Assembly: GCA_012839805.1 (NCBI GenBank)
Contig: DUMU01000007.1
Location: 78,374-142,373 of the forward strand
Source: Bacillota bacterium
GTDB lineage: Bacteria; Bacillota; Limnochordia; Limnochordales; DUMU01
Reading direction: 5' to 3'
Length of the DNA: 64,000 nucleotides
In this document: in pieces, positions 17,187 to 37,777 of the stretch
Position numbering within the stretch: position 1 is the stretch's first letter
How the letters are laid out: every line of letters starts with the position of its first letter
The notes under the pieces: generated by a model
Database searches by the model: none
The model's input: the letters and a program-made list of their open reading frames with translations, nothing else
What the model was told of the DNA's origin: nothing
Made by a program: the position numbers and the translations under genes

Positions 17187-20100
17187 ATGCAGATGCGGCC
17201 CGCTTTCCGTCGCAAGTTGCCGCTGGCCTGCATTCTGGCGGCTGGGTTGCTTCTTTCGTGCACTGCGCCTCTCTTGTCCGCTGCCGGACCGGCGACGCGG
17301 GCTCCATCAGTATCGCCACAGCCCGGGCTTGACGGGGGGGCGATCGTTCCTCCGCCCTCAGGATCGCCGCGGCAAGAGTTCCTGCCAGGTGAGGTCCTGG
17401 TCAAGCCGAAGATCAAGATCCATCCTGGGGTGGCCATGTCCCAGGCGGTGGCCAGCGCCGAGGTCGGAGTGAAGACTTCCGTCGCCGAGTTGGTGGGGAT
17501 CGAGCCACAGGCGGTCAAGGTCAAGCCCATCTCGATGCCGGATGGAAGTCCCCTGCTGGTGGTAAGCATCCCCGAGGGATCGGAGGAGGAAGTGGCCAGG
17601 GCCCTGAGCGCCCGGCCTGACGTGGAGTACGCCGAGCCGAACTACCTTTGGTACCCGGACGATGCCGTCTTCCCGACGGATCCACGTTTCAGCTTCAACT
17701 ACGACTTGCACAACACCGGCCAGGTTTTCGTGCCGCCCCTCGGCTTGAGCGGAACGCCGGACGCGGACATCGACATGCCCGAGGCCTGGGGCATCCATCA
17801 GGCGAGCGGCAGCATCGTCGTGGCCGTCATCGACACCGGCATCTTTATCGACCATCCCGAGCTCGCGGGGCAGATTTGGACGAACCCGGGCGAAATCCCG
17901 GATAACGGCGTGGACGACGATGGGAACGGATACGTCGACGACGTCCACGGCTGGGACTTCTTCAATAACGATAACACCGTCTTCGATTTGGCCGATGGCG
18001 ATGAACATGGCACACATGTTGCCGGGACGATCGGCGCGCTGATGAATAACGGCATCGGTTCGGCCGGTATCAACGGCAAGATCCAGATCATGCCGTTGAA
18101 GTTCATCGGGCCGAACGGCGGATCGACTGAGGATGCAGTCCGGGCCATCGAATACGCTGCGTCTTTTGGCGTGAAAATCTCCAATAATAGCTGGGGCGGT
18201 GGGGGCTACAGCGACGCACTTCGCGATGCCATAGCTAGCTCCGGCATGCTTTTCGTAGCCGCCGCGGGAAACGATGGTTTGGATAACGACGTCGCTCCGC
18301 ACTACCCGTCCTCTTACGACCTGCCCAATGTGCTGGCCGTGGCCTCCAGCGACTGGAACGACGAGCTCTCCGGCTTTTCCAACTACGGGGCGACCAGTGT
18401 CGACCTGGCCGCGCCCGGGGACTTCATCTTCAGCACCTGGGTTCGGAACGTCAACGGAACGGCACAGCCTGCCTTCGCCTGGGCTTCGGGCACGTCAATG
18501 GCTACACCGCACGTAGCCGGGGTGGCTGCTCTCCTGCTCGACAAGTACCCGGACCTGCCGCTCTATCCGGGAGCGCCGGGAGCGCAGCCGGACTCACCGA
18601 CATTGAAGGACGTACTCATGTACTCCGGGGATTACAAACCGGCCTATCAAGGGCTCATGGTTGCCCCGGTCCGGTTGAACGCGGAGCGTGCTTTGGGCCA
18701 GGTCATCGCTCCTATCATTCAGAATCTCACCGTTAACGGCAGGCCTTTTGGCAACCGCACAACTCCGGGCCAGGCGGTGGCGTTCACTGTAACGGCCGAA
18801 ACCCCGTTCAGCACGGTGGCTTCGATCACCTGGGATTTCGGCGACGGGCAGGAGGCAGCCGGGGCGACCGTTACTCACGTCTATGGTCGGCCCGGAGTAT
18901 ATGAGGTCCGGGTAACGGTAACGGACGACGACGGCGATGCATCAACCGCCTTGGCCACGGTCGAGGTGGTAGAGGACAACAGAACGGTTGTCCTGGTGGA
19001 CGACGACGGCAGTGCTGCCAGCGAGATTCCTTTGATTAACGCTCTAGAAGCAGCAGGGCTTCCCTATGTGGTAGCCGCCCCGCAGGCAATTCTGCGGCTC
19101 AACCCCCAGGACCACCCGAACCCGATCTTCTGGGAGACGGGAACGGAGTTATCTGCACTTAACGTATGGGAACAGGGCTTCATCGCCGCGTTCCTCGATG
19201 CGGGTGGGCGTCTCTTCCTGAGCGGTCAGGATGTCTTGGAGGGACTGGCGGGAAGCGACTTCCTGACCCGGTATCTCCACGTTCAGGCCTTCCGGAGTGA
19301 TACGGGGGCAGACGTGATCGAAGGTATCCCCGGCGATCCGGTCACGGGCGGTATCGGTCGCATTCGCCTCCAATTCCCGGAGGGGATCACGGACCGGGCC
19401 GATGACCTTACTCCCACCGAGGATGCCGACCCGATCTTTACGACCTCCCTCAACACCAGCCCGGCGTTGCGCTATATCTCGTCGGATCAGCAAGGACCGC
19501 GCCTGGTCCTCTCTACCGTTTATTTCGGAGCAATCCCGCTCACTAACCCGGATCCGTCCAATGCCCGCGGGTTCGTGCTCAGCATCTACCATTTCCTGAC
19601 CGGGCAGGATGTCAATCTGCCACCGGTCGTCCTCAAGACCGGCGGCTCGTTCCAGATCGGCGACGCTCCTCTCACTGTTCAGGTCAACGCGACGGTAGAG
19701 GACCCCGTTCCCCAACCACTGGCGGTGGCGTACGCCTACTGGGACTTCGGCGATGGTTCACCGGTGGTAGGGGCGAAACCGCAAGAGAACTTCGCGGCCA
19801 GCCATACGTACCAGGCTCCCGGCTTTTACCGGGCGACGCTGCGGGTAGTTGATGACCAGGGTGAGGACACCATCGCCTATCGCAACTTCCTCGTACTCCC
19901 GCCAGGCACGAAGATGATCGCGGTGGACGACGGCGACAATCCCGGGACGTTCGGCCTGATCACCGGGGTTCTCGATCAGCTGGGGGTCCGGTATGTAGCC
20001 GTAACCCCGGACCTGCTGGTGGACGAGACCGGCATTCTCGACGGGGCCTGGCAGTACCCGCTCTTGTGGACCACCGGCGAGATCGGCTATACCGACCACT

Positions 20101-22259
20101 CGGAAGTGGCGGCCCTCGAAGAGTTCATGGACCAGGGCGGGCATCTCATCCTCTCCGGACAAGATGAGCTCTTCAACATCTGGGAAGCCGACCCGCAACT
20201 GATGGAGTTCGCTACGGACTATCTCAAGGTTGCCGACGTGGCCCATGACGTAGGGGCTCCGCACATCCTTGGGCAGCCGGGCGACCCGATTAGCGACGGC
20301 GTGGAGATCTACCCGCAGTTCCCCTTCGCCGACTGGAGCGACATCATCTTACCGGCTCAAGAAGCGTCACCGCTCTTCTGGCGGGACATGGCGGACTACG
20401 GCTACCCTGACTACTACCTCCCGAATGCTTTACGCTACGATGGTAGTTACCACTTGCTCTTCCTTGCCTTCCCGCTTGAAGCAGTACCGTACCAGTATCG
20501 GTTGTCGGCGTCACCCACGTCAGCTGCCGGTCCGGGAGGGGCGGTGGCCGTGCCTCTGGCTGGTGAAAGCAGCGCCAGTACGGGCACAGCGCAGGTGCTC
20601 AAGAGCCAGCGAAAAGCCGGTGCTGCCAAAGGCATGCAGCTTGAGCAACTGAAGAGTCTTGCCTGGCGGCCAACCGGCGAAGTGGGCCCCTTCGTACCCG
20701 GTACCTTGCCCTTGCTCCTTGGCCGAGCCTTGAGTGCCTCCGACGCCGGTATTGCGCCGCCGCTTGCCCCCCTGGTGCTTGCTGTGAGCGCGGACCAGGG
20801 CCCGGTCGAGCCGGGCGTGGCCGTGACTTTGCAGGCGCTGGCCGAAGACGTAGACGGAACGATCGTGGAGGCCTGGGTGGAGACCGGCGATGGAGCGCGG
20901 ATCGATGTACTGGCGGGCGATTCACGGGTGATAGCGGACGTGACGCACACCTATAGCGAGCCCGGCGTCTACGATGTCACTTACTACTTTAAGGACGACG
21001 CGGGTAACGAAGCGGTCGGCAGCAGCCGGGTGACCGTAGCCTACCTGCCGCAGGCTAGCCTTGAACCGGCGGCGGTGGAGGTGAGCCTCTCCCCCGCGAT
21101 CCAGGCGGAACGGTCACTTACTCTCCACAACTCCGACGAGCAAGCCGAGCTGCACTTTACTGCGGAAGTAGCAGAAGCTCCCGCATGGCTCACCGTCGAG
21201 CCCGCCGCGGGAACTGTGTCCCCGGCGAGTTCGGCCAGCCTCCGCTTGCTGTTCAATACCGACGGCCTGGAAGCCGGTCAGGACTATACCGCAACGGTGG
21301 TCGTCCAGACCGACGATCCCGACCGGCCGCGGTTCGACGTGCTGGTTACGCTCCACATCGTCACTCCGGCGGCTGCGGTCAACCCGGGTGAGCTCAGCTT
21401 CATGCTAAACCCGGACGAGCAGGCGACCCGGGCGATCACGGTCTCGAACGAGGCGTCGGGGGAGGGAGCCGTTCTGGCCTTCACCGCCAGCGTAGACGGC
21501 GAGACGGGATGGCTCAGTGTCAGCCCGGCCCAGGGAGAAGTCGCTCCGGAGGGTACGGCGGAACTAACCGTTACGGTCGATACCACGGCGCTGGTCGCCG
21601 GTGACTACCAGGGGAAGATCGTGATCGCAACTAACGACCCGGAGAAGCCGGAAATCCAGATACCGGTCACCCTGCAGGTGCGACCCATCAACCTTCAGGT
21701 ACTGAGCCCGCAAGCAGGCGACGTCTGGACGGGAGTGAAGGAGATCCGCTGGCAGGCGGAGGACCCTGAAAGCCAGCAAGAGACGGAAGCCCTCAAGATC
21801 ACGCTGGAGTACAGCCCCGATGGAGGCACGACCTGGAAGAGTATCGCCACCGATGAAGCCAACGATGGGCGTTACAGTTGGGATACCCGTTCGGTGGAGA
21901 AAGGCGGCAACCGCTTCGTCGTGCGGGTGACAGCGACTGACCCCGAGGGGCACGCGGCGACGGCCACGAGCGGGGTATTTACCGTGGCGGTAGTTCGGAA
22001 CATGGTCACCCACGGTCCGAACCCGGCCAGGGAGTACGTCACCTTCTACTACAACCTGAGCGAACCGGCGAAGCTCTACGTCTATGACATCAGCGGTCAC
22101 CTGGTGCTGGCTCAGGATCTCGCGCCTGCCGCCAACCACTATCGGTGGGACCTGACGGACGCAGCGGGTCGACCACTGGCCAGCGGGCTGTACCTTTACA
22201 CGGTAGTGACCGAATCGGGCCAGGCCTCGCCGGTCGAACGCCTGGTAATCAAGCGGTGA
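17187..22259 (+). CDS. secreted multidomain subtilisin-like (S8) peptidase with PKD repeats and a T9SS-type/FlgD-Ig-like C-terminal domain
   Basis: Signal peptide and an I9-like propeptide. Catalytic triad contexts VAVIDTGI, HGTHVAGTIG, SGTSMATPHVAG. Three PKD-like WDFGDG.../THTY...Y repeats, two ~100-aa Ig-like repeats, and a C-terminus GPNPAREYVTFYYNL...LYVYDISGHLV...WDLTDAAGRPLASGLYLYTV. The second ATG (17193) has better SD spacing. Confidence 0.88.
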   Translation: MQMRPAFRRKLPLACILAAGLLLSCTAPLLSAAGPATRAPSVSPQPGLDGGAIVPPPSGSPRQEFLPGEVLVKPKIKIHPGVAMSQAVASAEVGVKTSVAELVGIEPQAVKVKPISMPDGSPLLVVSIPEGSEEEVARALSARPDVEYAEPNYLWYPDDAVFPTDPRFSFNYDLHNTGQVFVPPLGLSGTPDADIDMPEAWGIHQASGSIVVAVIDTGIFIDHPELAGQIWTNPGEIPDNGVDDDGNGYVDDVHGWDFFNNDNTVFDLADGDEHGTHVAGTIGALMNNGIGSAGINGKIQIMPLKFIGPNGGSTEDAVRAIEYAASFGVKISNNSWGGGGYSDALRDAIASSGMLFVAAAGNDGLDNDVAPHYPSSYDLPNVLAVASSDWNDELSGFSNYGATSVDLAAPGDFIFSTWVRNVNGTAQPAFAWASGTSMATPHVAGVAALLLDKYPDLPLYPGAPGAQPDSPTLKDVLMYSGDYKPAYQGLMVAPVRLNAERALGQVIAPIIQNLTVNGRPFGNRTTPGQAVAFTVTAETPFSTVASITWDFGDGQEAAGATVTHVYGRPGVYEVRVTVTDDDGDASTALATVEVVEDNRTVVLVDDDGSAASEIPLINALEAAGLPYVVAAPQAILRLNPQDHPNPIFWETGTELSALNVWEQGFIAAFLDAGGRLFLSGQDVLEGLAGSDFLTRYLHVQAFRSDTGADVIEGIPGDPVTGGIGRIRLQFPEGITDRADDLTPTEDADPIFTTSLNTSPALRYISSDQQGPRLVLSTVYFGAIPLTNPDPSNARGFVLSIYHFLTGQDVNLPPVVLKTGGSFQIGDAPLTVQVNATVEDPVPQPLAVAYAYWDFGDGSPVVGAKPQENFAASHTYQAPGFYRATLRVVDDQGEDTIAYRNFLVLPPGTKMIAVDDGDNPGTFGLITGVLDQLGVRYVAVTPDLLVDETGILDGAWQYPLLWTTGEIGYTDHSEVAALEEFMDQGGHLILSGQDELFNIWEADPQLMEFATDYLKVADVAHDVGAPHILGQPGDPISDGVEIYPQFPFADWSDIILPAQEASPLFWRDMADYGYPDYYLPNALRYDGSYHLLFLAFPLEAVPYQYRLSASPTSAAGPGGAVAVPLAGESSASTGTAQVLKSQRKAGAAKGMQLEQLKSLAWRPTGEVGPFVPGTLPLLLGRALSASDAGIAPPLAPLVLAVSADQGPVEPGVAVTLQALAEDVDGTIVEAWVETGDGARIDVLAGDSRVIADVTHTYSEPGVYDVTYYFKDDAGNEAVGSSRVTVAYLPQASLEPAAVEVSLSPAIQAERSLTLHNSDEQAELHFTAEVAEAPAWLTVEPAAGTVSPASSASLRLLFNTDGLEAGQDYTATVVVQTDDPDRPRFDVLVTLHIVTPAAAVNPGELSFMLNPDEQATRAITVSNEASGEGAVLAFTASVDGETGWLSVSPAQGEVAPEGTAELTVTVDTTALVAGDYQGKIVIATNDPEKPEIQIPVTLQVRPINLQVLSPQAGDVWTGVKEIRWQAEDPESQQETEALKITLEYSPDGGTTWKSIATDEANDGRYSWDTRSVEKGGNRFVVRVTATDPEGHAATATSGVFTVAVVRNMVTHGPNPAREYVTFYYNLSEPAKLYVYDISGHLVLAQDLAPAANHYRWDLTDAAGRPLASGLYLYTVVTESGQASPVERLVIKR

Positions 22260-23234: not shown

Positions 23235-23487
23235 CGCGCGCATATCCATATGCGACACGTGAGTGCACATGGAGCGGGGAGCGGTAGCCAGGAGGCCGGG
23301 GGCCGGGGTGTTTCGCGGCGCTTCCGGGGGGTGGGGGAGCAGAATAGGAGCGTGAAGCGGATAAGACGGCAGGAGACCGGTGCCGGGAAGAAGAATGAAG
23401 AGCGAGCGCGGGCCGCCCGCTGTACACCCCGGGACACCGGCCGCCCGCGCCAGTCCGCAAACGCGTCAATCGAGGTGTCAAGCCAGT

Positions 23488-25869
<2,382 letters not shown>

Positions 25870-26035: not shown

Positions 26036-26386
26036 TGGTGGAGGTGAGCGGAGTTGCACCGCTGTCCACGAGAGGGACCACACCCGCATCTACGAGCGTA
26101 GCTCTCGCTTTCTTCTCGTCCCGGCCGGCCCTCGAGAGCCAGGTCCGTCCGGCACCAGCCTGTATGAGTCCTCCGACCTACCAGGCACTCGGCCGGAGCC
26201 ATCCCGCTTCATGACACCTGGTTCCGGTTAGCGGGCGTCACCGGGCAGGCGTAGCAGCTGCTTACGCAGCGACTGCTAGAGCAGTGTTGTTGTTGGCACT
26301 TATTGGGTTTCCCCGGATTAACGAGTCAGGGAAGCTCGGCTCGCCGCGAATGCCACCCCATCCCGTGTCGAACCTGATTCACCCCC
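26036..26386 (-). ncRNA. ssrA: tmRNA (SsrA), tag peptide (A)ANNNTALAVAA
   Basis: 5' GGGGGTGAATCAGGTTCGACACGGG. Tag ORF GCC AAC AAC AAC ACT GCT CTA GCA GTC GCT GCG TAA at 26297-26262. 3' tRNA-like end GGTGCAACTCCGCTCACCTCCACCA with a G3:U pair in the acceptor stem. Confidence 0.92.
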
Positions 26387-27312: not shown

Positions 27313-28284
27313 ATGATCGAAATCAGGGGGTTGACGAAGCGGTTCGGTCAGCTGACCGCCGTGGATAACCTCAACCTGCGGGTGGAAAAAGGAGAGATCT
27401 TTGGTTTCCTGGGGCCTAACGGTGCTGGAAAGACCACTACTATCATGATGATCCTGGGTTTGATCCGGCCAACGTCAGGATCGGTTCGCATCTTCGGGAA
27501 AGAGCTCTCTGAAGATTACTTCGGGATCAAGAAGCGTCTGGGAGTGCTTTCTGAATACCAGTACATGTACGATGAGATGACGGCACGGGAATACCTGACG
27601 TTCTTTGCCCGGCTTTACCAGGTAGAACAAGGAGAGAAACGGGTCCAGGAGGTCCTGGAAAGGGTGCGGCTCCGGGACCGCCAGGATGAGCTGGTGGGCG
27701 GATACTCTAAAGGAATGAAACAGAAACTCGGGTTAGCCCGGGTGCTCCTGCACGACCCGGAGATTCTGATCCTCGACGAGCCGACCAGCTCCCTCGACCC
27801 TTACGGGGTGCGGGAGGTGCGGGATATCTTGCTCGAGGAGCACGAGCGAGGCCGGACCCTCCTGATATCTTCGCACCTGCTATCCGAGATCGAGCGGATC
27901 TCCACGCGGGTCGGGATCATGAACAAAGGCCGGCTGCTGGCCGAGAACACCATGGACGAGCTGCGCCGGCGGCTGACCCAAGAGGTAACCATAACCGTGG
28001 ACCTGGAGAGTATCCCCGACGGCGTAGTGGACAAGCTCCGGGAGCTGCCGAACGTGGTGTCGGTGGAGACGGTCCCGGTCAGCCGGGACGGTGCGGGTGC
28101 CGGGATGAGCCTGGTCATCAAGACCAAGCCGGGGGCCGAACGGCGGGCCGAAATCGCCCGGGTGCTCAGTAGCGCGGGAGCTATCATCCTCGGCATGCGC
28201 ACCAGCGAAATGAACCTGGAAGAGGTCTTCATCACCATCACGGAAAACAACATCTCACTCCTGGCTGAGGAGGGCGTGGCATGA
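27313..28284 (+). CDS. ABC transporter ATP-binding protein (ABC-2 exporter type)
   Basis: Walker [10 protein letters not shown], signature [12 protein letters not shown], Walker [13 protein letters not shown], plus a C-terminal accessory domain. Confidence 0.9.
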
Positions 28285-29111
28285 GTGCTACCTCGTACCG
28301 GCTGCACGCCACCCGCTTGATCGCGGGGCGTGAACTGCGTTCAACCGTCTTCGGCATCGGCATCTACATAGTCATGACGATCGCGTTCGTTTTGGCGTCC
28401 TACGGCGTCAACAGCTTCTTGTACAACATCTCTCAAAACGGCGCTCTGGCCATGCCATCGCCGTTGCTTCTGCCCCTATTTGTGGCCGTGTTTCTGAGCT
28501 CGCTCTATCTCGGGCTGCTCTCGTCGTTGACCATCTCCCGGGAACGAGATCAAGGCACGCTGGAAGTACTTTTCTACGGGCCGGTGGACTCATTCAGCTA
28601 TGTGATGGGCAAGTTCATCGAACAGATGCTCGTCTTCGGCGTTTTCATCCTGTTCAACCTGGTCTTCTTTGCCTTCGTTGCGCTGATTACTAACTTCGGC
28701 TTCAGCTTGGACATAATCTGGCTTCTCCTGATCTCCTTCTTCGTGGCTGCCTCAGTGGTCGCTTTCGGGATTTTCCTCTCATCGATCACCAAGAGCAGCC
28801 GGGCGTCGGTGTTCCTCTTCATCCTTTTCATGGCTTTCTTCATCGGCTTCTTCTGGGGGTACTCGACGCTGATGGGGATTCCCGACAAGGAGCTTTCGGC
28901 CGGCATGATCTACTTGCGGCAGGCCCTGGACTACCTGCGGCGGGTGATCGAGTGGGTCTCACCGCTCGAGTATCTCAACCGTGGGGCGCTGGCGGTCGCT
29001 TCCAGCAGCGTGAGCGGTTTCTTCGCCGCGGTGGGCGAATCCCTGGCCTATGGTGTGGTGCTGCTTGCCGCCTCGATCTTCTTCTTCAATCGTAAGGGGG
29101 TCAAGAAGTGA
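28281..29111 (+). CDS. ABC-2 family permease (NosY/GldF-like)
   Basis: Six predicted TM segments with ISRERDQGTLEVLFYGPV after TM2. 4-nt overlap with the ATPase gene. Confidence 0.8.
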   Translation: MSATSYRLHATRLIAGRELRSTVFGIGIYIVMTIAFVLASYGVNSFLYNISQNGALAMPSPLLLPLFVAVFLSSLYLGLLSSLTISRERDQGTLEVLFYGPVDSFSYVMGKFIEQMLVFGVFILFNLVFFAFVALITNFGFSLDIIWLLLISFFVAASVVAFGIFLSSITKSSRASVFLFILFMAFFIGFFWGYSTLMGIPDKELSAGMIYLRQALDYLRRVIEWVSPLEYLNRGALAVASSSVSGFFAAVGESLAYGVVLLAASIFFFNRKGVKK

Positions 29112-30703
29112 TGGTGATGAGGACGGAAGGTAAGGTGATGGTTCGCCGGCTGCTCCTGGGATTGCTGCTCGCAGGCACGGTGGCAGGAGCGCAGCTGGTG
29201 GTAGCCCCGGGCCAGAGCGGGGCCGCGACCGGGGCGGCCGATCAAGCCACCGTGGCCGGCGATACCCAGTCGCCCGCCGAGGGCACCCAGTCCTCAAGCA
29301 ACGGAACCCAGCCCGCGGGCAATGGTAACGCCAGCAGCGGCAGCGAAAGCAACAAGAGTGCGAGCGGCAGTACTCTCGCCCCCTGGGAGAAGGACATGCC
29401 CCAGCCCACCGAGGAGGAACTCAAAGGAGAGGGTGTGCCGGAGAAGGAAAAGCAGCTGGTCTACTCCCTCAGCCCCTGGACCGCTACGGAAAAGGAGCCG
29501 TACGGCGGCACGTTCGTTCCGAAAAGCGAGAGTACCTTCTTCCTATTGGCGGACCATCCCAGTCTGGTGAACCCGGTTCGTACCGAGGTGTACTACTGGC
29601 CGATCACCAAGGAATACATGGCGGACTGGTTCGGCTTCCGGGAGGACGTGCCGGGGAAGCTGGAGATCTTGCAGAACGGCAAGGTCATAAAGACCCTGGA
29701 GAAAGTGAAGTACACCTACAAGTACGGTGGCGAGGACTGGTCGCAGGCGCCTACGCTCATCGTCGGTGAAGAAGCGGTCAAGGAATACCAGGCGTACAAC
29801 GACGCGATGGATGCATACTACAAAGCCATGACCAAGTACTATGAGGACTACGACGCCTGGAACAAGTACATGGAGAAGCTCATTAAGCGAGTACAGCAGA
29901 CCGGCAAGCCCGCCAAACCGGAAGAGATCCCGGAGGCGCCCAAGCAGCCGGAGCCACCCAAGATCTACGTGACTGAACCAACCGAAGCCTTCCTCGTGAA
30001 TTTGCCGGCCGGCGAGTACGAGATCCGGACGGTAAAGGATGGGAAGGTCGTTCCCGATAGCGAGAAGAAGCTGGTAGTAGTCGCGCCCCGCCGGCAGGGG
30101 ATCGGTTACGTAGTCGTCCCCGAAAGCAAGTGGACCCGACCGTTCACCAGCGATGACCGAAGCCAACTTCTGTACACCTGGGGTTCGCGCACACTGTACA
30201 TCGGTGTGTTCGACTCTTTGGAGTACAACCGGTATGCCTACACTCGCTTGACGCAGGTCCACGTTCCTTTGGCAGGAAAGGGAACGGAAACGCAATGGCA
30301 ATGGGTGCAGACGAAGGAACGGACCGACGTGCGCCTGCAGCTGGTCAAAAACGGCGACGTGATCCAGGAGATTGTGCGGCAGCCCTTCTACGTCAAGCAG
30401 ACACCCGGTTACGCCCTGGGCTACCAGATCGTGCCTTTTGATGAAAAAGACCCGGAGATGCAGGGTCAAAAGCCTACCCTGTGGGGATTCCGGGTCGTGG
30501 TACCCGAAGGCGAGGGCTATCAAATCCGGGTAGTGGACGCCAAGGGTAATGTGCTGCCCGAAAGCGTCAGGGACATCCGTTCCGTAGCCCAGCAAGGACC
30601 ATGGGCGTTGTACGCAGTATCGGCCTTCCCGCTGGTGGTCGGCGGGCTGATCTATGGCTTGCGCCGGACACGAGTCCCGCGGCGCAAGCCTCTGCCGGTA
30701 TGA
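29108..30703 (+). CDS. uncharacterised exported protein with C-terminal TM anchor, Lys/Glu/Tyr-rich
   Basis: Signal peptide LLLGLLLAGTVAGA, Ser/Gly/Asn/Gln-rich linker, Tyr-rich helical segment YQAYNDAMDAYYKAMTKYYEDYDAWNKYMEKL. Two CarboxypepD_reg-like strands (LPAGEYEIRTVKDGKVV, PEGEGYQIRVVDAKGNVL). C-terminal helix ALYAVSAFPLVVGGLIYGL followed by RRTRVPRRK. Overlaps the permease stop. ATG at 29138 is an alternative start. Confidence 0.7.
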   Translation: MMVMRTEGKVMVRRLLLGLLLAGTVAGAQLVVAPGQSGAATGAADQATVAGDTQSPAEGTQSSSNGTQPAGNGNASSGSESNKSASGSTLAPWEKDMPQPTEEELKGEGVPEKEKQLVYSLSPWTATEKEPYGGTFVPKSESTFFLLADHPSLVNPVRTEVYYWPITKEYMADWFGFREDVPGKLEILQNGKVIKTLEKVKYTYKYGGEDWSQAPTLIVGEEAVKEYQAYNDAMDAYYKAMTKYYEDYDAWNKYMEKLIKRVQQTGKPAKPEEIPEAPKQPEPPKIYVTEPTEAFLVNLPAGEYEIRTVKDGKVVPDSEKKLVVVAPRRQGIGYVVVPESKWTRPFTSDDRSQLLYTWGSRTLYIGVFDSLEYNRYAYTRLTQVHVPLAGKGTETQWQWVQTKERTDVRLQLVKNGDVIQEIVRQPFYVKQTPGYALGYQIVPFDEKDPEMQGQKPTLWGFRVVVPEGEGYQIRVVDAKGNVLPESVRDIRSVAQQGPWALYAVSAFPLVVGGLIYGLRRTRVPRRKPLPV

Positions 30704-30767
30704 CGGCCGGCTCTTGATCCCAGACGGACGGCACCGTTTTTCGCCTGAACTCAAAACACTTGAGAAC

Positions 30768-30798
30768 GGGGGCGCCGAAGAGGCGTCCCTTTATTCTT
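30768..30798 (+). terminator. rho-independent terminator of the ABC-2 operon
   Basis: GGGGCGCC-gaaga-GGCGTCCC followed by TTTATTCTT. Confidence 0.65.
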
Positions 30799-30961
30799 GA
30801 TTTCACTGTTTCTCGGATTTCCTCGGCCGAAACAGGAATCGGACTCCTTTTCGAGAATGTGGGAAAGGAGGTTGTCCATTCCCCTTCTCGGGGATTCAAA
30901 ACCCGAGTTTCTCCGTCGCCGGGGGCCGGGGCGGGGTCTGGTGAAGTCGAGGTGAACGGTT

Positions 30962-33616
30962 TTGCGAGGGTGCGGGGTAGGGGAACAGCCGATAGCACGT
31001 TCCGCCCTCATCCTGTTCGCCACCGTCCTGCTCCTGCCGGCTTCGGGGGGGCCGGGCGTCACCGCCGCCGGCCCGGCCCCAGGTCGCCCCGAAGTCCAGG
31101 CGGGGGCGGATGCCATCCTCTGGATAGCCGGCCGGCCGGCGCCCGCCGAGGCTGCGCCCCGGCTGGTCGACGGCTACCTGTTTGTTGCGGCCCGTCCCGC
31201 CTTCTCTACCTTGGGGGTCACCGTGGAGCCGCTTCCGCCTTCTTCCCGGGGAGAAGCCCCCCGGTGTCGCCTGGTGCGAGAAGATCGGGAGCTGATCCTC
31301 ACCGCCGGGAGCGCCTCGGCGCGCCTCAACGGGCAGGAGTTCGACCTGCGGGTCGCACCCTGGGTGGAGAAGGAAGAATGGTTGGTGCCGCTCAGCCGGG
31401 TGGCGATCGCCCTCCGGCTCTCGCTCACCTGGGATAAAGAGCTCGGCCGGCTGGTTTTGACCGGTGGGGCGGGGGAGCCGGGGGAGAAAGCCGGGAAGAG
31501 TTCGGGGAGCGAGGCCGGCAGCACGGCCGGGGCTTTACCGTCTTCGCTGCCGGCCCGGCTTTGGGTCAGCCTGCAGCAGGACGGCGACCGGGTCGGGCTA
31601 CGACTGGAGGCCGGGGTGCCCTTCCGGGTGCAGGTACGGGACGCGGCTGGGGAAAAGCAGGCCGAGATCGACGTGGACGGGCTTCCTGCCGGTGTAAAGG
31701 TGGCCCTACCCGCCATACTGCGAGGATCGTGGCCCTCTCCGCTCATGGAGGTGGCGTTGATCCCGGTGGCGGTTCCCGCTCCGGGAGCGAGCGACCGGGC
31801 CACCGGAACCGTGAAGCTGCAAGTACGGTTTACCACGGCGGCGCGCCTTGAGCCCGTGCGTTCCGAAGCGAAGCCGGTGACCGATGCCACCCCGGCGCCG
31901 GCGGGAAAGGCCGCGACCACCGCCGGGCCGCGATACCGGGCGGATCTTTGGGTCGCGCCTGCGTCGCTCGCTGTACCCGTGGCGTCCCCCGTGAGCTCCG
32001 CGCTTTCCGCGTCTTCGGTGCTCCCACCGTCCGGCCTGCCGCCGTCCCTAAGCCTTCTCGCCGCCGCCGGGCAATCCTCACCGAGAACCCTGACCCGCGT
32101 CGAGTGGCAGCGGGAGGCGGGTTCGAGTGGCAGGCTAATCCTCCGGTCGACGGCGGCAGTGCCTGCCTCTTTGGCACCCTCTTCGGCGGCGGGCGGAACA
32201 GGTGCAGAAGAACCGGCATCGTTTCGTTCCGCGGTATGGCAGGACCCCCTCCGCCTGGTGATCGACCTGCCCGGGGTGACCTGGGAGGGCGAGAAGAGAA
32301 CGATCACGCTGAATGATCCCGATTTTGCCCGCCTGACCGTGGAGCGAACCCCCTCCGGTGAAGCCCGCCTCGTTCTGGAGGCGGCTCATCCCGGATTGCC
32401 CCTGGTTCGAAGGGACGGCAAGACGGGTGAGCTTCTGGCCGACGTGCTACGGGTAGTCCCGGCAGTAGAGGTGGACGGACCAACAGGAACGGTTACCATC
32501 CGGAGCTCCGGGCCGGTTGAGGCCAGGGTCTTCGTCTTACCCGACCCCGAACGCCTGGTGGTGGACCTGCTGGGGGCGGCGATTGTGGGCTCGGGGCCTC
32601 GTATCAACCATGACCCTGGCGCCGCCGGTAACCCGGTCTCGCGGGTACGGGTCGCTCAATTCGACCCCCGCACGGTCCGGGTGGTACTGGAATTGGTCAA
32701 GCCATTCGAGGTAAAAGTAAGTCAGAGCGAAGACGGTTCCCGGTTGGACTTGGCGTTCAGGGATGGGCCGGACGTTTGGGCAGCGTTCCCCGGGGGGCGA
32801 GCGAGCCGGGAGGCCGGGGAAGCCCGGGATACGCCGCCCGCCCAGGGAAGCGGAGCGAGCCGAACCGGGACCACGGTCAGCTGGGTTCAGCGCTGGCAGC
32901 CGCCCTCAGGACCCGCGGGTGTCAAGCCGGGCGAGGCGGTGATCGAAGCGCCGCCACGCCCGGAAGGGACGAAGATGCTCGCGCCGGCTATGCCGGTGAT
33001 GCCGGTGATGCCGGCCGTGCCGGTCATTGCGGGCGGCGGCGCGGCCGTGGAGGAGACTTTGACCCATCTGGCAGGCCGCTTCATAGTCCTGGACCCGGGG
33101 CACGGAGGTAGCGACCCGGGGGCCATCGGGGTGAACGGGGCTCGGGAAAAGGACCTGACCCTGGCCATAGCGCTGGACCTGGCGGCCAGGCTACGCGCGG
33201 CCGGAGCCCGGGTGGAGCTCACCCGGGAAAGTGACACGCTTCCGGCCTGGCCCCAGCGGGTAGCCCCGGCCAACCTGGGATCGGCCGATGCGCTGCTCAG
33301 CATCCACCTCAACTCGTTCCCCGGGCCGGAGGCACGGGGAATCGAGGTATACTACGCGGCCTCGCGGCCGGGGGCGGAGGAACTCGCCCGTACGCTCCTG
33401 CGTTCCTTGGCCCAGAGGCTAGGGACGCCCGGGCGCTGGGCCCGTGCCAGGGATGACCTTTATGTTTTGCGGGAGAGTCTGGTTCCTGCCGTTTTGCTCG
33501 AACTTGGATACCTGAGTCACCCCGAAGAGGCAGCCAAGCTCGTCGAACGGCAGTACCAGGAGGAGATTGCCCGGGCGATCGCGGTCGGTCTGGATCAGTA
33601 CTTCGCCGGCAGGTGA
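30962..33616 (+). CDS. N-acetylmuramoyl-L-alanine amidase (Amidase_3) with copper-amine-oxidase-N-like and AMIN-like domains
   Basis: C-terminus has VLDPGHGGSDPGA...KDLTLAIAL...LSIHLNS...GIEVYY...PAVLLELGYLSHPEE. N-terminus has LNGQEFDL...WLVPLSRVAIALRLSLTWD. Central LRLVIDLPGV / ERLVVDLLGA / VRVVLEL repeats. TTG start after gaggtg. Confidence 0.85.
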   Translation: MRGCGVGEQPIARSALILFATVLLLPASGGPGVTAAGPAPGRPEVQAGADAILWIAGRPAPAEAAPRLVDGYLFVAARPAFSTLGVTVEPLPPSSRGEAPRCRLVREDRELILTAGSASARLNGQEFDLRVAPWVEKEEWLVPLSRVAIALRLSLTWDKELGRLVLTGGAGEPGEKAGKSSGSEAGSTAGALPSSLPARLWVSLQQDGDRVGLRLEAGVPFRVQVRDAAGEKQAEIDVDGLPAGVKVALPAILRGSWPSPLMEVALIPVAVPAPGASDRATGTVKLQVRFTTAARLEPVRSEAKPVTDATPAPAGKAATTAGPRYRADLWVAPASLAVPVASPVSSALSASSVLPPSGLPPSLSLLAAAGQSSPRTLTRVEWQREAGSSGRLILRSTAAVPASLAPSSAAGGTGAEEPASFRSAVWQDPLRLVIDLPGVTWEGEKRTITLNDPDFARLTVERTPSGEARLVLEAAHPGLPLVRRDGKTGELLADVLRVVPAVEVDGPTGTVTIRSSGPVEARVFVLPDPERLVVDLLGAAIVGSGPRINHDPGAAGNPVSRVRVAQFDPRTVRVVLELVKPFEVKVSQSEDGSRLDLAFRDGPDVWAAFPGGRASREAGEARDTPPAQGSGASRTGTTVSWVQRWQPPSGPAGVKPGEAVIEAPPRPEGTKMLAPAMPVMPVMPAVPVIAGGGAAVEETLTHLAGRFIVLDPGHGGSDPGAIGVNGAREKDLTLAIALDLAARLRAAGARVELTRESDTLPAWPQRVAPANLGSADALLSIHLNSFPGPEARGIEVYYAASRPGAEELARTLLRSLAQRLGTPGRWARARDDLYVLRESLVPAVLLELGYLSHPEEAAKLVERQYQEEIARAIAVGLDQYFAGR

Positions 33617-33658: not shown

Positions 33659-34351
33659 GTGGGTGATCGAGCAGTGAACTGGTGGGGCCGATGCCTGCGC
33701 TACGCAGTAGTGGTAGGGCTCCTTGCCTTCCTGGGATGGGCGGGCTGGGGGGAAGAGAGTAAGGGAGCCATCTTGCACCTGCGAGCTCTGCCCGTCGGCG
33801 AGGGCCGCTCTTTACTCGCAGATAAGACCACGCCGGCCGGAGAGGCCCGCCCGCGCCCGGGACCGGGGGCGAGCAGCGAGTCCCTCCCGCGGGGGCCGGT
33901 CAACCGGGCTACCGTAACGGTAGCCTTTTACTATCCTTCTCGCGACGGCAGCTTCCTCGTGCCGGAGGTGCGGTCGGTTCCGCAAGCAGAGAGTTCACCA
34001 GGGCGAATCATTGAAGAACTGCTGCGAGGACCTACCCTGAACCAGACATTGATTAGCCCCTTCCCTGCCGGTACGCGCCTTTTGGACTGGAGACTTGCCA
34101 CCGACGGCACGCTGGTGGCCGATTTCTCCCGGGAGCTGGTCACCCGGCATTGGGGAGGCACCTCTGGTGAACTGGCTACCGTGTACTCGCTGGTGAACAC
34201 GGTGACCCGTTTGCCGGGTGTGCGGAGGGTCCGGTTCGAGGTGGAAGGCGAGCCGGTCGAAACCCTGGCCGGACACGTCGATTTGCGTGAACCGCTGACT
34301 TTTGATGCCACGCTGGTTTGGAGCGGGGACGGAGGGAATCAGGAGCCTTGA
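33659..34351 (+). CDS. gerM: GerM/Germane domain protein (sporulation/germination)
   Basis: N-terminal TM helix, then VTVAFYYPSRDGSFLVPEVRSV...IIEELLRGP...VYSLVNTVTRLPGVRRVRFEVEGEPVETLAGHVDL. GTG start. Confidence 0.75.
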   Translation: MGDRAVNWWGRCLRYAVVVGLLAFLGWAGWGEESKGAILHLRALPVGEGRSLLADKTTPAGEARPRPGPGASSESLPRGPVNRATVTVAFYYPSRDGSFLVPEVRSVPQAESSPGRIIEELLRGPTLNQTLISPFPAGTRLLDWRLATDGTLVADFSRELVTRHWGGTSGELATVYSLVNTVTRLPGVRRVRFEVEGEPVETLAGHVDLREPLTFDATLVWSGDGGNQEP

Positions 34352-35778
34352 CGAATTGGCAGGGCCGCCGGGTGGCGGTAGTGGGGCTGGGCACGAGTAA
34401 TCTGGCGGTGATCCGGTATCTCCTGCAACGAGGGGCACAAGTAGAAGGCCGGGATCAAAAAAACCTGGCCGAGCTGGGCGACGTAGGAGCCGAACTTGCC
34501 CGGTTGCCGGTCAAGCTCCGGCTCGGGCCCGGTTATCTCGAAGGTTTGACGGAATACGACGCGGTTTTCGTGACTCCGGGCATCTCCCGTCACAAACCCG
34601 AGCTGGTAGAGCTCAAAACTAGCGGCGTTCCCATCTTAAGCGAGATCGGGGTGGTCCTGGAAGAGTGCCGGGCAACGGTGCTGGGGATCACGGGGACGAG
34701 CGGTAAGACCACGACGACCACCCTTGTGGGCAAGATCATGGAGGCCGCGGGACGCCAAACTTTCGTGGGGGGCAATATCGGCCAGCCCCTGATCGAGGTG
34801 GCTGCCTCCATCCCGCCCGAGGCGATGGTAGTGCTGGAACTTTCCAGTTTCCAGCTGGAGATGCTGGACCGGAGCCCGCAAGGGGCGCTGGTGACCAACG
34901 TAACCCCCAACCATCTCGACATGCATGCCGACATGGCGGAGTACGTGGCAGCCAAGGAAAGGATTTTCCGTTTCCAGGGACCCCGGGATGTGGCCGTCTT
35001 CAACCTGGATAACGAGTACACCCGGAAGATGGCGGAGGAGGCACCCTCCCGCCGGCTGTGGTTCAGCCTGGAGGAGGAACCGGGGGCCGGCGCCTGGCTG
35101 GCCGGGGAAGCGATTTACTGGCGAGGCCGGGAAAACCAGGGGGCAGAGAAAGTAGTTCAGCGGGAAGAGATACTCTTGCCCGGTATGCACAATGTGGCCA
35201 ATGTGGCGGCGGCCTGTGCACTTACCGGGGCGTTCGGGGCTCCGGTGAGCGCGATGGCGCAGGTGGCCAGGACTTTTCGGGGGGTGCCCCATCGCCTGCA
35301 GGTGGTGGGGGAAGGAACGGTACGGGGGAAGGCGAATGTGACCTTCATCAACGATTCCATCGCCACCACCCCCTCCCGCACCGTGGCCGCGATCCGGGCC
35401 ATGACCCGGCCCACCGTGCTGCTCCTGGGGGGCTACGACAAGCACCTCCCCTTCGACGAGCTGGCAGAGGAGTTGATGCAGCCCGAGTCGCCGGTGACGG
35501 CCGTGGTGCTGCTGGGGGCGACGGCGGAGAAGATCGGGGCGGCGATGGCGGCGGCCAAGGAGCGCGGCGGGCGGGCACTCGAGCGGGCGCGGCCTTTGCA
35601 GGTGCTTAGGGCTGCTTCGTTCGCGCAGGCGGTGCAGATGGCGGCCGAGGTGGTGCCGCCCGGAGGGGTGGTGCTCCTGTCACCGGCCTGCGCGAGCTAC
35701 GATATGTTCCGCAATTTCGAGGAGCGGGCGCACGTTTTCGAGCAACTGGCGCAGGAGCTTCTGAGAGAGGGAGCGTGA
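34348..35778 (+). CDS. murD: UDP-N-acetylmuramoylalanine--D-glutamate ligase MurD
   Basis: [42 protein letters not shown] at 34348 overlaps the gerM stop. TTG at 34318 is an alternative. Confidence 0.88.
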
Positions 35779-37423: not shown

Positions 37424-37500
37424 CGGGGTGTGGCGCAGGTTGGTAGCGCGTCTGCTTTGGGAGCAGAAGGCCCGCGGTTCAAGTCCGCGCACCCCGACCA
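37424..37500 (+). tRNA. tRNA-Pro (anticodon TGG), CCA encoded
   Basis: Acceptor cggggtg/caccccg, anticodon loop ttTGGga, T-loop ggttcaagtcc. Confidence 0.92.
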
Positions 37501-37510
37501 TGATTTTATT

Positions 37511-37584
37511 GCGGGTGTAGCTCAATGGTAGAGCATCGGCCTTCCAAGCCGAGTACGGGGGTTCGATTCCCCTCACCCGCTCCA
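37511..37584 (+). tRNA. tRNA-Gly (anticodon TCC), CCA encoded
   Basis: Acceptor gcgggtg/cacccgc, anticodon stem tcggc/gccga with loop ctTCCaa, T-loop ggttcgattcc. Confidence 0.92.
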
Positions 37585-37607
37585 GTTTTTGCGCTTATTG
37601 CGTTATT

Positions 37608-37686
37608 GCGCCTGTAGCTCAGGTGGAGAGAGCGGGGGCCTTCTAAGCCCTGTCTTGCGGGGGTTCGAGTCCTCCCAGGCGCACCA
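37608..37686 (+). tRNA. tRNA-Arg (anticodon TCT), CCA encoded
   Basis: Acceptor gcgcctg/caggcgc, anticodon loop ctTCTaa, T-loop ggttcgagtcc. The variable region looks slightly long in my hand fold. Confidence 0.85.
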
Positions 37687-37699
37687 GCCAAAAGTTTGT

Positions 37700-37777
37700 G
37701 GTGAGCGTAGCTCAGATGGTTAGAGCGCCAGGTTGTGGCCCTGGAGGTCGTGGGTTCGAGTCCCGTCGCTCACCCCA
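37700..37777 (+). tRNA. tRNA-His (anticodon GTG) with encoded G-1, CCA encoded
   Basis: g-gtgagcg/cgctcac-c acceptor with G-1:C73, anticodon loop ttGTGgc, T-loop ggttcgagtcc. Confidence 0.92.

Follow-up and report, generated by a model that had tools for sequence, protein, structure and literature searches.

To our knowledge, few ATP-binding cassette (ABC) transporters of type V have extracytoplasmic partners; NosDFY, by which nitrous oxide reductase is matured, is the only one for which we know of a worked-out mechanism, and we know of no established role for GldG, the third component of the gliding-associated GldA–GldF–GldG system of Bacteroidota. NosD is a soluble beta-helix protein, and GldG has an uncleaved N-terminal transmembrane (TM) helix, a C-terminal TM helix and an alpha/beta fold. 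Here we describe a chromosomal operon of three genes from a Bacillota bacterium of the Limnochordales, lying in a 64,000-nt stretch of contig DUMU01000007.1 (the window; all coordinates are positions in it). The genes encode an ATPase, an ABC-2 permease and a 531-aa protein, here called X. We consider it probable (at about 60%) that the operon encodes a type V (ABC-2 fold) ABC transporter, and that X is its dedicated extracytoplasmic partner subunit, belonging to a previously unnamed family. The operon is made up as follows.

27313–28284, + strand: ABC ATPase, 323 aa, of the DrrA/NosF/ABCA-like nucleotide-binding domain (NBD) type, with a C-terminal extension of ~90 aa
28281–29111, + strand: ABC-2 permease, 276 aa, NosY-like subfamily, with six hydrophobic segments and the RERDQGTLEVLFYGP motif
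29108–30703, + strand: protein X, 531 aa when read from GTG 29108
30768–30800, + strand: intrinsic-terminator-like hairpin and T-tract, closing the three-gene unit

Both gene junctions are 4-nt overlaps, ATGA between the ATPase and the permease and GTGA between the permease and X. The start of X is ambiguous, with GTG 29108, ATG 29111, ATG 29117 and ATG 29138 all available, so that X is 521–531 aa long; the last of these starts is preceded by GGAAGG and gives a product beginning MVRRLLLG. Translational coupling of the permease and X holds whichever of the four is used. The original prediction, made from the letters of the window, had described three coupled genes followed by a terminator, and the genes lie exactly where it placed them. 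The terminator is there too, as a hairpin with a 9-bp stem (7 GC pairs; 30768–30790) followed by TTTATTCTT, 65 nt past the X stop codon, although this call is supportive only, the hairpin scan overall having found 5 such structures against 4.2 expected in shuffled sequence, with no enrichment. That the X open reading frame (ORF) is a real gene is clear from its 95 homologues, the coding-type GC pattern across its codon positions and a confident structure model. An antisense ORF of 403 aa (29543–30754, − strand) covers most of gene X. Shadow ORFs of this type are common at 60–65% GC, and we regard this one as such because the gene on the + strand has homologues and the coding pattern of GC at third codon positions (GC3).

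The first two genes place the operon among the ABC-2, or type V, transporters, since an ABC_tran protein is adjoined by a separate six-TM ABC-2 permease. The ATPase matches PF00005 (E 7e-33) over 137/137 profile positions and resembles NBDs of the DrrA, GldA and NodI types, yet it falls under every equivalog cut-off: it scores 249 bits on TIGR01188 (drrA), 227 bits against a cut-off of 402.6 on TIGR03522 (GldA), and 194.8 bits against 309.75 on the lantibiotic-protection model TIGR03740. Its nearest solved relatives are the NBDs of ABCA3, ABCA4 and ABCA1, then NosF (5e-45) and Rv1218c. The permease matches PF12679 (ABC2_membrane_2; E 1e-14, 54.7 bits, cut-off 27.2) and also PF12698, has six hydrophobic segments by hydropathy, and carries the RERDQGTLEVLF motif. 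On the GldF model, TIGR03518, it scores 28 bits against a cut-off of 288.5, and a search of PDB sequences found no relative of it, solved NosY included. Its 112 detected homologues carry NosY-type names in their sources, several being called ‘multi-copper enzyme maturation permease’. PADLOC gave no match for the permease or for X.

Our interpretation is supported by the linkage of X to this permease. Every ORF of 89 loci fetched through X was scored by phmmer and with hidden Markov models (HMMs). The permease lies directly upstream of X, on the same strand, in 88/88 loci that have upstream DNA, and the ATPase is also present in 81/81 loci with at least ~1.9 kb upstream of X. After removal of redundancy, X follows the same permease subfamily directly in 83/83 loci with upstream DNA. 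At 82 of these 83 junctions the permease stop and X start overlap by 4 nt (74/83) or 1 nt (7/83) or abut (1/83), a somewhat generous count, as it takes the X start codon nearest to the permease stop. The 4-nt overlap is also seen in 8/8 loci whose genes were called independently, and the order ATPase, ABC-2 permease, X is seen in the gene calls around five diverse members. The test was also run in reverse: the three most distant permease homologues with usable context (30–35% identity, from the 112) each precede a protein of 442–444 aa without a Pfam match. We found no fusion of X to a permease. Thus, judged by sequence and within detection limits, X and its permease subfamily appear inseparable.

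The 95 X homologues, recovered by a word-indexed search, share 23–100% identity with X and lack Pfam domains; 76% are from Limnochordales, and the remainder from other Bacillota, Chloroflexota and Ca. Caldatribacterium. Searching exhaustively by profile brought the family to 532 clusters (50% identity, E<=1e-3), 293 of them at E<=1e-30. When GTDB species representatives were scanned, Armatimonadota, ‘ANGP1’ and many Spirochaetota joined the list, nearly all as metagenome-assembled genomes (MAGs). The family therefore spans at least six phyla: Limnochordia with other Bacillota, Chloroflexota, Armatimonadota, ANGP1, Atribacterota and Spirochaetota. The conservation of the triad extends over this whole range, as linkage is found in every locus with upstream DNA. 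Four MAG labels lie outside the main distribution, those of L012 (Bacteroidota), L081 (Bacteroidales), L085 (Cellvibrionaceae) and L091 (Deltaproteobacteria); the L012 label looks like a binning error, because its X is 81% identical to that of the window. Source names for family members are all ‘hypothetical’ or ‘uncharacterized’, except for one spurious JGI ‘YegP’ label. The canonical length is ~440 aa, and the shared traits are a signal peptide, an ectodomain of ~390 aa with the motifs VY[YF]WPIT, KWTRP and ALGY, a proline in the C-terminal TM helix and a basic tail, all of which X of the window has. One metagenomic member, P0185 (588 aa), is without the C-terminal TM helix and has ~180 extra residues at its end, with a sub-threshold match to F5/8 type C (discoidin; E 0.0098) that could hint at glycan binding or be an assembly artefact.

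X was modelled with AlphaFold2 from a 70-sequence alignment (mean predicted local distance difference test score, pLDDT, of 87; >95 over residues 110–520), and residues 108–285 were modelled separately (pLDDT 93.6). The parts of the protein are given below, all on the + strand.

Residues 1–29 (29108–29194): signal-peptide-like, with a basic n-region, a short hydrophobic core and an AGA|Q site
Residues 30–107 (29195–29428): disordered Ser/Gly/Asn/Gln/Thr spacer, pLDDT 35–50
Residues 108–220 (29429–29767): N-terminal beta-sandwich (~114–219), pLDDT 95–98, with the motif VY[YF]WPIT
Residues 221–265 (29768–29902): uninterrupted 45-residue helix (DSSP), pLDDT ~98
Residues 266–290 (29903–29977): ordered Pro-rich linker; P278 invariant, P281 nearly so
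Residues 291–495 (29978–30592): C-terminal immunoglobulin (Ig)-like beta-sandwich modules (~286–493 in the model), strands with pLDDT >95
Residues 498–522 (30599–30673): C-terminal TM helix (hydropathy, AlphaFold2)
Residues 523–531 (30674–30700): basic cytoplasmic tail

The predicted topology is type I bitopic, with a signal-peptide-like N-terminus and one C-terminal TM helix. AlphaFold2 places a hydrophobic helix at residues 7–29, and the N-termini of homologues finish in AxA-like sites, which suggests that the signal peptide is cleaved. A sortase- or PEP-CTERM-like sorting signal was considered for the C-terminus and rejected, as the conserved proline lies in the middle of the helix and only ~10 hydrophobic residues lie beyond it. 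The signal peptide, the Tyr/Lys/Asp-rich helix, the Pro-rich linker, the TM helix and the basic tail had all been read from the sequence in the original prediction, and the predicted anatomy agrees. The Ser/Gly/Asn/Gln-rich spacer is likewise present and disordered; it is restricted to the closest relatives (alignment occupancy 0.20), however, and is thus a Limnochordales-specific insertion outside the core of the family. The 45-residue helix, by contrast with the spacer, is conserved throughout the family (occupancy 0.99), and is rich in Tyr (18%), Lys, Ala, Glu and Asp.

Nine residues do not vary across the aligned family: Y162 and W164, both within the VY[YF]WPIT motif, P278, G302, W342, W399, G438, Y439 and P508. 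Eight of them belong to the ectodomain and are aromatic, Gly or Pro, and the ninth, P508, is the proline of the TM helix. Among polar residues, R328, R329, T343, S348, E372, Q431, D477 and R488 are nearly invariant and cluster in the C-terminal modules, whose motifs are NLPxGxY, RRxGxGY, KWTRP, QTPGxALGY and GSxRxIR. In the TM helix P508 is found in 70/70 sequences, L509 in 84% and R519 in 94%. A passive anchor would not need such constraint, which suggests that the helix packs in a specific way. There is no conserved Cys, His or Met in the 70-member family alignment, which argues against a Nos-like copper function.

Searches for relatives of X outside its family gave little. With Pfam there was nothing useful (best E 0.0047, spurious), with NCBIfam no match, and the family profile against PDB sequences reached E 0.11 at best. 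Foldseek with the whole model found no PDB match at E<1e-3. Its best local matches are pairs of filamin Ig domains (probability 0.99, E ~4e-3, TM-score <=0.33), and the list also holds invasin-type adhesins, FdeC and arrestins, that is, generic tandem Ig-like sandwiches. For residues 108–285, the N-terminal domain and helix, the best Foldseek match against the PDB had E 0.21 and probability 0.18, and a search of BFVD gave nothing. The absence of recognisable similarity noted in the original prediction was therefore borne out. Its proposal of two carboxypeptidase-regulatory-like modules was not: neither PF13620 nor PF13715 matched X at E<=1, and alignment by hhalign with genuine CarboxypepD_reg proteins encoded in these operons covered 15 columns (NLPxGxYxIR) at 2–3% probability, the modules being Ig-like by Foldseek. 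Nor was there a match in X at E<=1 to PF09822 (GldG, ABC_transp_aux), a comparison which the original prediction had proposed and by which X is not GldG, or to the NosD family; profile search found no LytM or EnvC-like domain. Literature searches on GldG structure, on NosDFY, on CarboxypepD_reg domains with ABC-2 transporters and on type V accessory subunits turned up no mention of the X family.

Many lineages carry a fourth gene in the operon, whose product of 234–290 aa has a TM helix at its N-terminus and a CarboxypepD_reg-like domain. In Spirochaetota this gene precedes that of the ATPase (26 loci), in Atribacterota and others it separates the ATPase gene from the permease gene, and in 13 Bacillota loci it lies directly 3' of X; examples are L001:4467–5183, L004:3331–4185, L006:3280–4152, L008:2481–3332, L021:5663–6514, L090:3291–4004 and L092:3296–4000. 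The upstream and downstream families align by hhalign at 96% probability across the TM and CarboxypepD_reg part, and hhalign found no relation of either to X. In addition, the ATPase and permease matches share one stop-free frame in four loci of Armatimonadota or Chloroflexota (L045:3506–5923, L046:875–2911, L047:4001–5926 and L069:4016–5917), each with a separate X gene adjacent downstream; from their sequences, these may encode a fused half-transporter. A variable layout of ATPase and permease, combined with a fixed position of X and a fourth gene, fits a multi-subunit machine.

We take X to be a dedicated subunit because of its strict one-to-one adjacency to the permease, its own signal peptide and its constrained TM anchor. 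We infer that the three products form a physical complex, and likewise the direction of transport and the nature of the cargo, along the following lines. Two copies of the ATPase and two of the six-TM permease would make up the motor and membrane core. X would be exported via its cleavable signal peptide and retained by its single C-terminal helix, which would pack against the permease, so that the ectodomain of ~390 residues would stand above the permease's outer face. There X may receive the cargo as the permease drives it out of the membrane, an amphiphilic or lipid-linked envelope component being the most plausible candidate. Alternatively, the ATPase cycle may move X itself, as NosFY does with NosD or LptB2FG with LptC. 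The suggestion of an amphiphilic or lipid-linked cargo is a guess, drawn from the ABCA/DrrA-like character of the ATPase and the peptidoglycan-related neighbourhood in Bacillota. A bitopic accessory with a single TM helix set against the TM domains of the transporter, and a beta-rich ectodomain that receives lipid, is known from LptB2FG–LptC (PMC10094684 and general background). The likeness to X is one of concept: LptC is anchored at its N-terminus and is a beta-jellyroll, LptFG is of type VI with periplasmic domains of its own, and no similarity of X to Lpt parts was found by sequence or Foldseek.

The composition and surroundings of the operon bear on the alternatives considered below. The three-gene block has a GC content of 59.2%, whereas the window averages 64.3% (sd 1.9%), which puts the block among the lowest 1% of the window's 3.4-kb stretches; the few lower ones overlap the block and the adjacent smpB. 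The lower GC noted in the original prediction is thus real. It is not, however, the sign of a foreign block, as GC3 equals that of the flanks: it is 0.77–0.80 in the three operon genes, and 0.78, 0.77 and 0.77 in the genes for the H+-pyrophosphatase, the amidase and smpB. The reduction in the operon genes is confined to the first and second codon positions (GC1 and GC2), and therefore reflects amino-acid composition. The dip comes from proteins rich in Lys, Glu, Tyr, Phe and Ile, and not from foreign DNA; the GC of smpB (0.596) is the same as that of the block.

The surroundings of the operon in the window are housekeeping genes, running from the H+-pyrophosphatase through tmRNA and smpB to the operon, and on through an AMIN–Amidase_3 protein, GerM and a MurD-like ligase to RNase PH. 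Neighbouring features are listed here.

17187–22259, + strand: subtilase, 1690 aa, secreted-looking, with a fervidolysin-like prodomain, Peptidase_S8, three PKD domains, BACON/ASH-type Ig domains and a FlgD_ig domain
23380–25869, + strand: H+-translocating pyrophosphatase (PF03030, E 1e-280)
26036–26386, − strand: tmRNA (Rfam, 168 bits), with tag peptide ANNNTALAVAA
26775–27287, − strand: smpB, divergent from the ABC operon
30962–33616, + strand: AMIN and Amidase_3 protein, 884 aa (Cu_amine_oxidN1, 2×AMIN, Amidase_3)
33659–34351, + strand: GerM (Germane) protein
34318–35778, + strand: MurD-like ligase
37424–37777, + strand: four clustered tRNA genes (Pro-TGG, Gly-TCC, Arg-TCT, His-GTG)

The stop-to-stop smpB ORF begins 25 nt from the ATPase start, and its true start is probably the second Met, ~36 nt further in. 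The H+-pyrophosphatase has an N-terminal extension of ~165 aa, rich in Ala, Gly and Thr, and the GTG start listed for it may be too far upstream. The gap between X and the amidase gene is ~260 nt and contains the terminator. The same succession of smpB, operon, amidase, GerM and Mur ligase is found in 15–23 Bacillota loci with X identities of 33–81%. These four neighbours recur in Bacillota only, the other phyla keeping the operon without them, and URO-D and NeuB neighbours recur only in one spirochaete clade. In several phyla, genes for CUT1 sugar importers (SBP_bac_1, BPD_transp_1) are found no more than 6 kb from the operon (L001:8594–12016, L004:10563–13338, L008:9585–12470, L059:7963–9444, L064:8268–9716 and others), which is probably chance because such genes are very abundant in those genomes.

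Some points weigh against X being a dedicated partner subunit. Operon linkage would be equally expected if X were a cargo, an immunity protein or a regulator; the genes outside the operon differ between phyla and give no pointer to a substrate; and the fourth gene was not found in the 64-kb window by tblastn or HMM search, so that either three parts suffice for the core to work or another part lies at a different place in the genome. The chief alternative, which we regard as unlikely, follows from the first of these points: X could be a co-expressed surface client, whether cargo, adhesin or an immunity protein like LanI or NisI beside a LanFEG-like pump, and operon linkage alone does not separate a partner from a client. 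LanFEG with LanI or LanH does resemble our operon in that an ABC-2 pump is encoded with a membrane-attached extracytoplasmic accessory protein, and the ATPase scores 195 bits on TIGR03740, though this is under the cut-off of 310. Tandem Ig-like modules are typical of adhesins, as the presence of filamin, invasin and FdeC in the Foldseek list reflects, and P0185, with its weak discoidin-like C-terminus (E 0.0098, under the cut-off) and no TM helix, would also suit a client. On the other hand, X is far larger than the Lan proteins and unrelated to them, and with a Sec-type signal peptide of its own its export does not depend on an ABC system. Genes for lantibiotics, bacteriocins or regulators do not recur near the operon, the rest of the window not having been scanned for lanthipeptide genes. 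One-to-one adjacency that is kept among housekeeping genes in six or more phyla, together with an invariant TM proline, exceeds what is usual for an immunity or adhesin gene. The original prediction had left open a new accessory or substrate class, and what we found, no match to a known family together with linkage to ABC-2 genes in every locus, is the opposite of an outcome that would speak against such a class. Taken together the data favour an accessory rather than a substrate. It is much less probable that X is a divergent GldG or NosD, and the operon a remote GldAFG or NosDFY; indeed we give this very little credence. The resemblance to GldAFG lies in the gene order, in the PF12679 permease, which belongs to the NosY/GldF family, and in a large membrane-anchored extracytoplasmic third protein of unexplained role, the match in position and topology being by analogy. 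The ‘multi-copper enzyme maturation permease’ names and the closeness of NosF to the ATPase point the same way. NosDFY is also alike in having a type V core that acts on a tightly bound periplasmic all-beta partner and is not a simple solute pump. However, X matches neither PF09822 nor the NosD family, and the GldA and GldF equivalog models are missed by a wide margin (227 against 403 and 28 against 288 bits). The predicted fold of X is one of Ig-like sandwiches and a long helix, anchored in the membrane and with no conserved Cys, His or Met as metal ligands. No gld or spr genes lie nearby and no nos genes, nosZ and nosL included, are adjacent, and the host phyla are other than those of GldAFG. 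The original prediction had likened the topology of X to that of GldG, which is right as to position and to an extracytoplasmic protein anchored in the membrane, whereas X has a signal peptide and one C-terminal TM helix in place of the two TM anchors of GldG.

Whilst the neighbours in Bacillota could suggest a different role, in which the operon controls cell-wall hydrolysis by mechanotransmission, in the manner of FtsEX–EnvC and its amidase, with ATP hydrolysis moving X and the X helix regulating the neighbouring AMIN–Amidase_3 protein, we judge this to be quite improbable. It would draw on the amidase gene directly downstream, followed by GerM and the MurD-like ligase in an order kept in 15–23 Bacillota loci, and on the conserved 45-residue helix; FtsEX–EnvC and FtsEX–PcsB are likewise cases of an ATPase coupled to an extracytoplasmic partner with a long helix. 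However, the amidase neighbourhood is absent from Spirochaetota, Chloroflexota, Armatimonadota and Atribacterota despite an intact operon, a terminator-like hairpin stands between X and the amidase gene, and X is without a LytM, CHAP or EnvC-like domain. FtsEX, moreover, is a type VII ABC system and not of the ABC-2 fold. We also think it scarcely credible that the low-GC block is a horizontally acquired island beside tmRNA/smpB, a common integration hotspot. The block is among the window's lowest-GC stretches of 3.4 kb, and tmRNA and smpB are close by. Against this, the operon's GC3 equals that of its flanks, smpB is equally low in GC, the order smpB, operon, amidase is kept in at least 15 related genomes, and it is the 5' side of smpB that the operon adjoins, not the 3' end of ssrA.

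Returning to X as a dedicated partner subunit, a bolder form of this interpretation can be put forward, though only tentatively: that the operon encodes a new type V ABC ‘nanomachine’, whose motor would power or feed an extracytoplasmic beta-sandwich assembly for envelope biogenesis, for instance for the transfer of a lipid-linked or amphiphilic component, rather than pump solutes. If true, this machine would be common to Limnochordia, Atribacterota, Armatimonadota, Chloroflexota and Spirochaetota, and would parallel Lpt, Lol and NosDFY with unrelated parts. A second membrane-anchored protein with a CarboxypepD_reg domain would then join X in many lineages, and the N-terminal domain of X would be a component without a solved structural relative.

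The finding would not overturn current views of ABC transporters. X would, however, be a third, unrelated partner family for type V cores, one with more than 500 clusters that is absent from Pfam and NCBIfam, and it is spread over phyla, most of them uncultured, that are dominant in anaerobic digesters, sediments and hot springs. This would make X a clean candidate for the definition of a family, and for structural study of how a type V core is coupled to a subunit outside the membrane.

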